64,000 bases of DNA from Escherichia coli (GTDB lineage: Bacteria; Pseudomonadota; Gammaproteobacteria; Enterobacterales; Enterobacteriaceae), in the NCBI RefSeq assembly GCF_024700885.2, contig NZ_CP117016.1. One strand, written 5' to 3'. Positions within the stretch are counted from its first letter, which is position 1. Every line of letters starts with the position of its first letter. A program made the position numbers and the translations under genes. Below, piece by piece: positions 8,649-9,849 of the stretch. The notes below the pieces were generated by a model. The model did no database searches. It saw only the letters and a program-made list of their open reading frames with translations, and was not told where the DNA came from.

Positions 8649-9162
8649 CATTAACAGCAAAGACTTTCACTTCAGGTTAACGTTCTGGGGGCGACTTTGA
8701 GCGTGTTGATAAGCTGAAATGAATTCTGGTTTAGATACTTTTACCAGGCATTTTTCGTCATAGCACGCGACCAATGTAATGCCGCCAGCGCGGAGAGTTT
8801 TTTGCCTATCTTTTTCCAGCCATTCAACCTGTACAGGAGGTCTGGTGCCAATTTTGCGTATGAGGTTTAATCAACAATGGGCCAAAATTTGACTGACTGA
8901 TTAACACCGAATATATTCTCCTGATTTTATTTTTTAGGGATAATATTAAAAATATAAGGTTAATCTTAATTAAATTTTTGGCTAATATTGTGTGTTGTTA
9001 TTTTTTGTGGACGGCAAGCCGCAATGGCAAAATAGGTATGGTTGTAATAATCAAAACATGATACTAACTATATATAGATCGTTGAATTGTTGGCATGTAA
9101 CTCGCTACAGCGAGTAGCGTTAGTAATGAAATATAATCAACATGGATAGGTGAAGATTAATT

Positions 9163-9849
9163 ATGAGCTTTATGGTTTTTGTAACTTGTTTGACAATTGC
9201 ATTTGCCGCCGGTTTTGCTGTTGCCAGAAAATTGACACTCCGAAAAGTTGCCTCATCGGTAATCATCACTAGATCGCAACCAGTCCCTTCCTCTGCAACT
9301 TCCCCTGCGGCTAAGACGTCGACAAGGAGCTATACACCGCAGAAAACCTATCGTGACTCTCGTTGGCAAGAACGAGATGAGTTGTTCCAGGGAATGGTTG
9401 CCGAAGGTATTTTATTGGAAGGAAAAGAGTGGTTAATTACGCGTTGTGAAAAAATCTATTTTGATAATCTGGAGAAATGGTTTGGACATTATTGTCATAT
9501 CCATTGCCAGGTCTCTCTGGGGCGCTTGATCAACTTTCCAGAACAACCCGAGTTTAGCGAAGAAGAAAGAAAGCGTTTCTTTGCAATTTATAATGGAATG
9601 GCAATGGATTATGTTCTGGTTTCAAAGAAGAACAATAAAATAGTCTGTGTTATTGAGCTGGATGATCCGAGTCATGAAAGGGCAGATCGCATTATTCGTG
9701 ACCGTTGGTTGAATACGATTATGACTATTGCACGGGTGCCTTTTGTACGAGCTTCTGTCACTAAATTGGATGAAATCCCTCCGGTCTGGGATACCCGTGA
9801 CAAAATGCGCCCATTAGCCGCGGCGACAAAGGGTGAACCGTTGCATTAA
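9163..9849 (+). CDS. Membrane-anchored DUF2726-like protein
   Basis: 228 aa; N-terminal hydrophobic helix (FMVFVTCLTIAFAAGFAVA); C-terminal region DYVLVSKKNNKIVCVIELDDPSHE..RIIRDRWLNTIMTIARVPFVR resembles the DUF2726 nuclease-like fold. Assigned from motif memory only. Confidence 0.5.
   Translation: MSFMVFVTCLTIAFAAGFAVARKLTLRKVASSVIITRSQPVPSSATSPAAKTSTRSYTPQKTYRDSRWQERDELFQGMVAEGILLEGKEWLITRCEKIYFDNLEKWFGHYCHIHCQVSLGRLINFPEQPEFSEEERKRFFAIYNGMAMDYVLVSKKNNKIVCVIELDDPSHERADRIIRDRWLNTIMTIARVPFVRASVTKLDEIPPVWDTRDKMRPLAAATKGEPLH

Follow-up and report, generated by a model that had tools for sequence, protein, structure and literature searches.

A gene for a predicted membrane-anchored DUF2726 protein and the pga block are alternative occupants of the phoH-serX interval in Escherichia coli

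In Escherichia coli K-12, phoH is followed by pgaDCBA, dgcT, IS3, ycdU, four RtT repeat units, serX and ghrA. In the 64-kb stretch of E. coli DNA analyzed here (the window; coordinates are 1-based positions within it), the same phoH gene is instead followed by AT-rich non-coding DNA, a gene of the DUF2726 family (Pfam PF10881) and a pair of repeats, which raises the questions of which arrangement is older and what the DUF2726 protein might do. An earlier note on this DNA had described the succession as phoH, about 500 bp of AT-rich sequence, a membrane-protein gene and repeats, and each of these elements was recovered, positions included (phoH ends at 8601 and is separated by 561 bp from the gene at 9163-9849). 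Over region 8400-10300 the window showed 100% identity to E. coli MLI114, which was isolated from human stool in Mali. The arrangement is not a chance pattern; RefSeq annotates an identical layout in MLI114.

Comparison of the window with the K-12 locus by blastn delimited the exchanged DNA. Similarity ended at 8644, 3 nt past the phoH terminator (the left-hand homology in this comparison covers window 8600-8644 only), and picked up again at 9856 within the RtT units. No traces of pga-side sequence were found in the window haplotype and no DUF2726 sequence was found in K-12. The space from the phoH terminator to the serX-side RtT repeats has two alternative occupants, unrelated in sequence: the 1211-bp segment at 8645-9855 and the ~11-kb pga-ycdU block. 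Among 5426 complete E. coli genomes, the segment was present in 1051 (~19%), including the O26:H11 strain 11368 and O111:H8 strains, and pgaC in 4382; the two counts sum to 5433 and are near-complementary by totals. The earlier note was right that pga is missing from this locus, as the break points and these counts place its absence in the genome and not in the cut of the window; tblastn found no homologues of pga, dgcT or ycdU anywhere in the 64 kb, and the totals argue strongly that MLI114 lacks pga elsewhere in its genome as well. Strict alternation of the two fillings is weakened by the fact that complementarity was read from genome totals, not genome by genome, and by at least seven genomes that match both the segment and the pgaC queries, some through short partial hits. 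A pga-negative phoH-serX state has already been published for E. coli Tob1, Fec101 and B-8638 (Cimdins et al. 2017, PMC5635171), and the locus is a known, common and already catalogued allele with an annotated DUF gene, real but ordinary.

The order of events was read from relatives of E. coli. The E. albertii type strain has the order efeB, phoH, DUF2726, RtT, serX and ghrA, the cryptic-clade Escherichia sp. MOD1-EC7003 has putP, phoH and DUF2726, and many Salmonella enterica have putA, putP, phoH and DUF2726, sometimes followed by an insertion sequence (IS), and then ghrA, ycdXYZ and csg, with pga absent from this position. E. coli alleles of the DUF2726 coding sequence shared 95.2% identity with one another and 88.5% with the E. 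albertii gene, and the synonymous divergence (dS) of the gene was ~0.1 among E. coli, ~0.4 to E. albertii and saturated to Salmonella. Divergence scales with species distance, which fits vertical descent, and the ratio of nonsynonymous to synonymous divergence (dN/dS) of the domain between species (0.03-0.07) indicates purifying selection. Because E. albertii, cryptic Escherichia and many S. enterica share phoH-DUF2726 with divergence of this kind, the phoH-DUF2726-serX arrangement is probably ancestral, and the pga-dgcT-(IS3)-ycdU block of K-12 a later acquisition that displaced it. This reverses the direction given in the earlier note, which held that the canonical neighbors of phoH had been replaced.

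The opposite history, in which pga-dgcT-ycdU was lost from a K-12-like ancestor and the interval was refilled by foreign AT-rich DUF2726 DNA, perhaps as part of the adjoining island, would account for the G+C content of the segment (40% vs 50% in the core) and for its place beside an integration hotspot and, in this strain, an island. However, the segment lies outside the 14-nt attachment (att) repeats of that island and also occurs without it, directly before RtT, serX and ghrA, in E. coli SW071614 (phoH, DUF2726, RtT, serX, ghrA) and in E. albertii. Pga-positive strains are the majority, and the segment is more diverged among E. coli alleles (upstream intergenic region 87% identity, coding sequence 95.2%) than phoH (98.9%), as such a replacement might predict; on the other side, the same gene follows phoH in Salmonella with divergence that scales with species distance, and in the comparison of the window with K-12 neither haplotype holds traces of the other's sequence. 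The outgroup synteny largely refutes this recent replacement, which we regard as quite improbable. Descent of the DUF2726 arrangement from a common ancestor is challenged by a scan of one genome per species, in which the gene was not recovered from the representative S. enterica, S. bongori and E. fergusonii genomes; the gene is therefore polymorphic outside E. coli too, and there is room for its repeated transfer. The two alleles probably now pass between strains by recombination in their shared flanks.

For genome annotation, this means that a "missing" pga operon represents a common and probably ancestral allele and not damage. Through a single two-allele locus, about one in five E. coli lack the capacity for poly-N-acetylglucosamine (PNAG) biofilm encoded by pga and the cyclic di-GMP input of dgcT, and since these include O26:H11 and O111:H8 lineages, the absence bears on assumptions about biofilm formation and vaccine antigens.

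The AT-rich stretch after phoH is no mere filler; it is the upstream region of the DUF2726 gene itself. Its G+C content is 37.8% over the 561 bp of 8602-9162 and 30.1% over 8891-9162, against 50% in the core part of the window, and 8602-9162 holds no open reading frame (ORF) conserved across Escherichia alleles. In alignment A2 the region is collinear across Escherichia, and GAAATATAAT...ATTAATTATG, a block that immediately precedes the start codon, is kept even in Salmonella; the TATAAT and Shine-Dalgarno-like motifs conserved here suggest a promoter role for this block. The window allele lacks a 27-bp stretch, CTTCCAGAAGCCAAAAAAATGAGCATC, at ~8817 (A2 columns 218-244), and the other Escherichia alleles have CTTCCAGAAGCCAAAAAAATGAGCATC. 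A pseudogene or mobile-element remnant in 8645-9162 was rejected, there being no allele-conserved ORF and no match to mobile elements or, mis-filed chromosomal records aside, to plasmids. Control of the gene by the Pho regulon was likewise dropped, as a window-wide search for Pho-box-like sites gave none upstream of the DUF2726 gene and a sole match upstream of phoH.

The DUF2726 assignment of the gene, first made in the earlier note, passed a Pfam profile search (66.9 bits, cut-off 24.7; E=1.9e-18); residues 90-205 matched profile positions 3-116 of 126, and DUF2726 was the only Pfam family found in the protein. The membrane anchor proposed along with it was recovered both by Kyte-Doolittle hydropathy and in an AlphaFold2 model, which comprises a helix at residues 3-30 (per-residue confidence score, pLDDT, ~86), disorder from 27 to 63 and a core with alpha-beta-beta-beta-alpha-beta order (pLDDT 85-97). 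This predicted fold resembles Vsr, I-Bth0305I and the DUF559-like NGO0050, and the core is of the PD-(D/E)XK/Vsr-like type. DUF2726 has been grouped with Vsr and DUF559 in the PD-(D/E)XK superfamily and described as often near mobile elements (Steczkiewicz et al. 2012, PMC3424549), and a restriction endonuclease-type DUF2726 domain is fused to AbiJ N-terminal domains (PMC3710099). As the helix is preceded by no charged residue and followed by RKLTLRK, the positive-inside rule predicts an N-out/C-in anchor with the nuclease-like, putatively catalytic domain facing the cytoplasm.

These features extend across the family. An alignment of 17 close relatives showed a hydrophobic N-terminal helix, a variable Ser/Thr/Pro-rich linker and a conserved C-terminal part opening with SRWExRDELFxGM. 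A full-library profile search returned 5568 cluster representatives (50% identity) at E<=1e-3 and only 26 at E<=1e-30. Among 131 of the best representatives, E96, D149, E165, D168, H171, R176, R179 and D180 were each at least 98% conserved, forming a near-invariant signature (E...D...E-L-D-D-x-S/T-H...R..RD), and all eight are present in the window protein. A strongly hydrophobic 18-mer was found in 115 of 133 full-length representatives (within the first 40 residues in 110), and K/R were more numerous after the helix than before it in 109 of the 115 that bear one. Judged by its sequence, the gene is functional and its putative active site intact. A decaying relic is a highly improbable reading: the gene is absent from most E. 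coli, has no known phenotype and is often shortened by gene callers (the 151-aa Salmonella calls and several partial entries), but its ORF is intact in every lineage examined, the domain dN/dS is low, all family-invariant residues are kept and the translation signals are conserved.

Several database entries for relatives of the gene call for comment. The 151-aa Salmonella DUF2726 entries (L086-L088:7001-7456; L087:6796-7456), which are very common, start at an internal Met, although the reading frame continues upstream without a stop to its full 219 codons, membrane helix included. Many database entries are therefore N-terminally shortened, gene calling having picked the internal Met although the upstream frame is intact. 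A 1450-bp contig in a metagenome bin labeled 'Collinsella sp.' (L012, JAIJJM010000775.1) encodes the end of phoH and a DUF2726 protein with 98% identity to E. coli and is almost certainly an E. coli contaminant of the bin. STM1127 was considered as the Salmonella orthologue and rejected, being an unrelated MurR-type repressor.

For the function of the protein, we tentatively propose a membrane-tethered PD-(D/E)XK nuclease acting on incoming nucleic acid. The gene would be expressed from its own AT-rich upstream region via the conserved TATAAT/Shine-Dalgarno block. Its product would cross the inner membrane once, N terminus outward, and through a flexible linker of ~40 residues would hold a Vsr-like endonuclease domain, dependent on metal, on the cytoplasmic side; the conserved acidic and histidine residues are the one feature that points to metal-dependent cleavage. 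Such a tether may keep the nuclease off the nucleoid and place it to cut nucleic acid crossing or contacting the inner membrane, with injected phage DNA and conjugative or other incoming DNA as candidate targets. The best-documented precedent is SNIPE of E. coli (Saxton et al., bioRxiv 10.1101/2025.11.03.685801). It spans the membrane once with its N terminus outside, its GIY-YIG nuclease on the cytoplasmic side cuts lambda DNA as it is injected, and the protein is toxic once untethered. We also counted in favor of the proposal that close homologues occur in accessory or conflict contexts, either as cargo of integrative and conjugative elements (ICEs) near Abi_2 or a toxin-antitoxin-like pair or in a slot between tssA and tssF.

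Several results weigh against the proposal. The Escherichia/Salmonella copy behaves as a stably inherited chromosomal gene and not as a fast-turnover defense gene. The window protein matched no PADLOC-DB v2 family at E<=1 and no NCBIfam model, a PDB-sequence profile search with its family gave nothing meaningful, and when the family profile was compared with an E. coli Vsr sequence by hhalign, the two did not match (probability 0.3%). As a sequence, then, the protein has no tie to any biochemically characterized nuclease, and because hhalign found no Vsr match, a residue-by-residue equivalence to the Vsr catalytic residues is not established. The predicted topology has the positive-inside rule as its sole basis. 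Around 49 distant relatives, comparison of 89 flanking ORFs with Pfam and PADLOC showed no recurrent partner and no clear defense-island enrichment; their neighbors were heterogeneous and mostly housekeeping, with scattered defense genes only. In a screen of Avibacterium paragallinarum, biofilm formation was raised by two transposon insertions, obtained independently, in a gene of the DUF2726 family (PMC13119452), and this phenotype of a family member hints at other roles. The biofilm effect was the only phenotype found for the family, which is curious since in E. coli the other allele of the locus is a biofilm operon, pga. In PHROGs the sole match was phrog_14167, a family of unknown function, and the literature yielded no functional study of DUF2726/PF10881.

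Taken as a whole, the locus history and the protein mechanism form our best explanation, which we hold at slightly short of an even balance. Whether the mechanism extends to the small anchored DUF2726 proteins at large (5568 clusters, most of them anchored), which would then be PD-(D/E)XK nucleases tethered to the membrane, each encoded by one gene, widely distributed and directed at nucleic acid arriving through the inner membrane, is more doubtful. If the DUF2726 protein does cut incoming DNA, a function would be provided for a family of thousands of orphan genes and the SNIPE principle would be extended to a different nuclease fold. If the family at large does so, it would be a second, evolutionarily independent solution in which location distinguishes self from non-self, and the phoH-side copies (in about a fifth of E. 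coli and many Salmonella) together with those on ICEs and in secretion clusters would be working examples.

Outside Escherichia and Salmonella, the closest homologues recur in two settings, T6SS clusters and ICEs. Homologues with 44-57% identity were found embedded in type VI secretion system (T6SS) clusters of Citrobacter sp. 18056, Rahnella woolbedingensis, Candidatus Pantoea deserta and one metagenomic contig, on the same strand and tightly packed in the order tssM-tssA-DUF2726-tssF-tssG-tssJ. An Erwinia homologue lies directly upstream of a vgrG-DUF2169-PAAR toxin. Literature searches for DUF2726/PF10881 found no paper describing the family in T6SS clusters. The ICE homologues occupy a fixed place after traU...traG_N and ~1 kb before an Integrase_1 (PF12835) gene; their company varies and includes Abi_2 or a toxin-antitoxin pair of PemK-like type. 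In a neighbor-joining tree of the domain, the phoH-linked clade joined the T6SS-embedded proteins with 64% bootstrap, and the ICE copies formed separate clades. All three settings (phoH-serX, T6SS and ICE) are accessory-gene hotspots. Because tblastn returned only distant Vibrio phage and satellite ORFs from phage genomes, and only distant DUF2726 genes from plasmids, the subfamily is not typically phage- or plasmid-borne.

These clusters raise the possibility that the gene is an orphaned T6SS accessory or cargo gene (effector, immunity-like or machine-associated) left beside serX, a known site of T6SS-island integration where the T6SS island SPI-19 (Salmonella pathogenicity island 19) is inserted in Salmonella (PMC2907695; locus L005). 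Its role would then be tied to the activity of the secretion system and not to incoming DNA at large. The packing of homologues between tssA and tssF, the Erwinia copy upstream of the vgrG-associated toxin and the grouping of the phoH-linked clade in the tree agree with such an origin. Yet the tree support is modest, other close homologues are ICE cargo, and the tssA-tssF interval is a variable cargo region in Pantoea T6SS-2 (PMC3942780), so co-location may only mark a hotspot. T6SS genes are absent from the locus in the window and in other Escherichia carriers (E. coli, E. albertii) as well as in most Salmonella carriers. The gene is also not on the side of serX that holds the att-bounded island, and PAAR, Rhs, MIX or Eag-type features are missing from the protein. 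We consider a T6SS role unlikely.

A housekeeping function was given a similarly small chance. The gene has kept a stable, syntenic linkage to phoH from a time before Escherichia and Salmonella diverged, purifying selection is strong, the fold is Vsr-like and distant relatives lie mostly among housekeeping genes, all of which would suit a membrane enzyme acting on nucleic acid, for example a Vsr-like endonuclease with a part in repair or processing, or a nuclease that scavenges phosphate and is functionally linked to phoH. However, the gene is dispensable, ~80% of E. coli being without it, it lies past the phoH terminator with its own upstream region and no Pho-box-like site there, and its close homologues occur as ICE cargo and in cargo slots of T6SS clusters. 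Of continuing interest are the candidate tethered-nuclease idea for the anchored DUF2726 family and the unexplained embedding of close homologues in T6SS clusters. The features of the locus and of the homologous loci are collected in Table 1.

Table 1. Features of the phoH-serX region in the window and positions of homologues elsewhere (L numbers are locus labels).
Feature	Position	Strand	Basis or remark
efeB	5943-7214
Pho-box-like site	7370-7387		Upstream of phoH; only match in window
phoH	7813-8601	+	RefSeq start; longest ORF from 7537; Pfam PhoH E=1e-76; MLI114 annotation
phoH intrinsic-terminator-like hairpin and T-run	8615-8641	+	Terminator scan
Haplotype-specific segment, 1211 bp	8645-9855	+	No K-12 homology between 8644 and 9856
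Non-coding upstream region of DUF2726 gene	8645-9162	+	Composition; no ORF conserved between alleles
Conserved TATAAT	9132-9137		Putative promoter element
Shine-Dalgarno-like AGGTGA	9148-9153		Upstream of DUF2726 start
DUF2726 gene, 228 aa, RefSeq WP_001605227.1	9163-9849	+	Pfam PF10881 E=1.9e-18; RefSeq
N-terminal hydrophobic membrane helix, codons 3-22	9169-9228	+	Kyte-Doolittle 2.33 over 18 residues
Predicted Vsr-like PD-(D/E)XK nuclease-fold core, codons 90-205	9430-9777	+	E96, D149, E165, D168, H171, R176, R179, D180
RtT-type repeats, ~1.5 units, 180-nt period, serX 3' flank	9856-10133	-	98-nt repeats; Rfam; RefSeq homologues
att core TGGCGGTGAGGGGG, displaced serX 3' end	10120-10133	-	Left junction of ~80-kb island
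P4-type tyrosine integrase of serX island	10294-11496	+	Pfam Arm-DNA-bind_3, Phage_int_M, Phage_integrase; RefSeq; outside DUF2726 segment
Island in MLI114 record	3189930-3270264		Window 10134-64000 and beyond
T6SS-embedded homologues	L018:4824-5483; L015:4983-5630; L021:5007-5603; L082:258-872
ICE homologues	L009, L020, L075-L077, L080-L081, L083		Gene at ~5001-5640 in each

On the left, phoH forms the conserved flank of the variable locus. The Rfam family Ysr251 (a Yersinia antisense small RNA) gave a full-length match of 192.8 bits at 8403-8596 on the minus strand, antisense to the 3' end of phoH; the conserved phoH coding sequence overlapped by the model may be the whole cause of this match.

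On the right, two exact 98-nt direct repeats (9856-9953 and 10036-10133) lie 180 nt apart, the first beginning six bases after the DUF2726 ORF. They had been taken for island boundary repeats, and of this description the repeats themselves stand; their attribution does not, as they are native RtT-type units of the serX flank to which the island adds only a 14-nt att core. Each unit contains a terminator together with a copy of the 3' end of tRNA-Ser. The Rfam model RtT (RF00391) matched a complete unit at 9940-10077 on the minus strand with 42.3 bits, just below its gathering threshold of 45, and homologous units (97% identical) are annotated by RefSeq as RtT small RNA beside serX, four in K-12 and two in strain 03_3013. 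Because RtT-type units follow serX in island-free genomes such as K-12, the repeats are not made by the island. That they might be a tRNA gene was ruled out by a tRNA scan, which found none in the 64-kb window, serX itself lying outside it.

Island sequence begins at 10134, and the 14-nt TGGCGGTGAGGGGG is its only duplication. In MLI114, TGGCGGTGAGGGGG recurs as the 3' end of an intact serX beside ghrA, ~80 kb away at the far end of the island. In this strain the ~80-kb island was thus inserted, as a separate event, at the serX 3' end; it displaced the tRNA gene beyond the window, leaving its last 14 nt behind, and this explains why the window has no tRNA gene. With a tyrosine integrase, situated at the island end far from the intact tRNA, and direct repeats of a tRNA 3' end at both junctions, the element is a tRNA-targeting integrative island.

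Of its cargo, RefSeq places in the window, among others, IS fragments, iro remnants, a malX/malY/enterotoxin block and a fimbrial operon of afaD type; the part outside the window carries a type I restriction-modification system with darTG between hsdS and hsdR, Ag43 and cbtA/yeeU. Directly after the integrase, a 605-aa ORF (11683-13500, minus strand) with 31-34% G+C has no Pfam match and is a RefSeq hypothetical; it occupies the same position in strain 03_3013. Further on, 18532-25443 looks like a conflict or defense module. It opens with a frameshifted piece of a primase-domain gene of the 'TOTE conflict system' (~18532-18867), behind which lie a 1656-aa ORF (19040-24010; RefSeq start 19052, AAA domain protein) and, overlapping it, a 478-aa ORF (24007-25443).

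Comparison with known systems places the locus as follows. The pga-negative strains of Cimdins et al. share with this haplotype the absence of pga, ycdT/dgcT or IS between phoH and serX and the retention of ghrA-ycdXYZ-csg; PMC5635171 does not mention the DUF2726 gene, the allele frequency or the occurrence in outgroups, and these points come from the present analysis. With RtT repeats (RF00391), which are tandem and lie downstream of tyrT and serX, the window array shares the 180-nt period and unit ends resembling a tRNA 3' end, and it differs from known arrays in having ~1.5 units only, the last being cut by the island junction. The T6SS island SPI-19 of Salmonella is likewise inserted at serX, with a 15-nt truncated copy of the tRNA end at its far junction (Blondel et al. 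2009, PMC2907695). Both are thus insertions in the serX 3' end with a short scar, 15 nt in SPI-19 and 14 nt here; the cargo differs, the present island carrying a P4-type integrase and TOTE/AAA, sugar and fimbrial genes, and the DUF2726 gene lies outside it.

Among proteins, the window protein is a plain member of Pfam DUF2726, and nothing sets it apart from the family. It shares its predicted fold with Vsr, from which it differs in having a membrane anchor and in the lack of detectable sequence similarity. In contrast to SNIPE, for which activity and phage protection have been demonstrated, the window protein is a candidate nuclease. SNIPE has a DUF4041 DNA-binding domain, which was not found in the window protein (Pfam scan; residues 27-63 disordered), and its nuclease is of the GIY-YIG type, whereas the domain of the window protein is PD-(D/E)XK/Vsr-like. 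Both are encoded by a single gene and have one N-terminal transmembrane helix; the N-out orientation of SNIPE and the position of its nuclease at the cytoplasmic face are predicted for the window protein too. The window protein is possibly a functional analogue of SNIPE, and at most that, rather than a homologue or a member of the same family.

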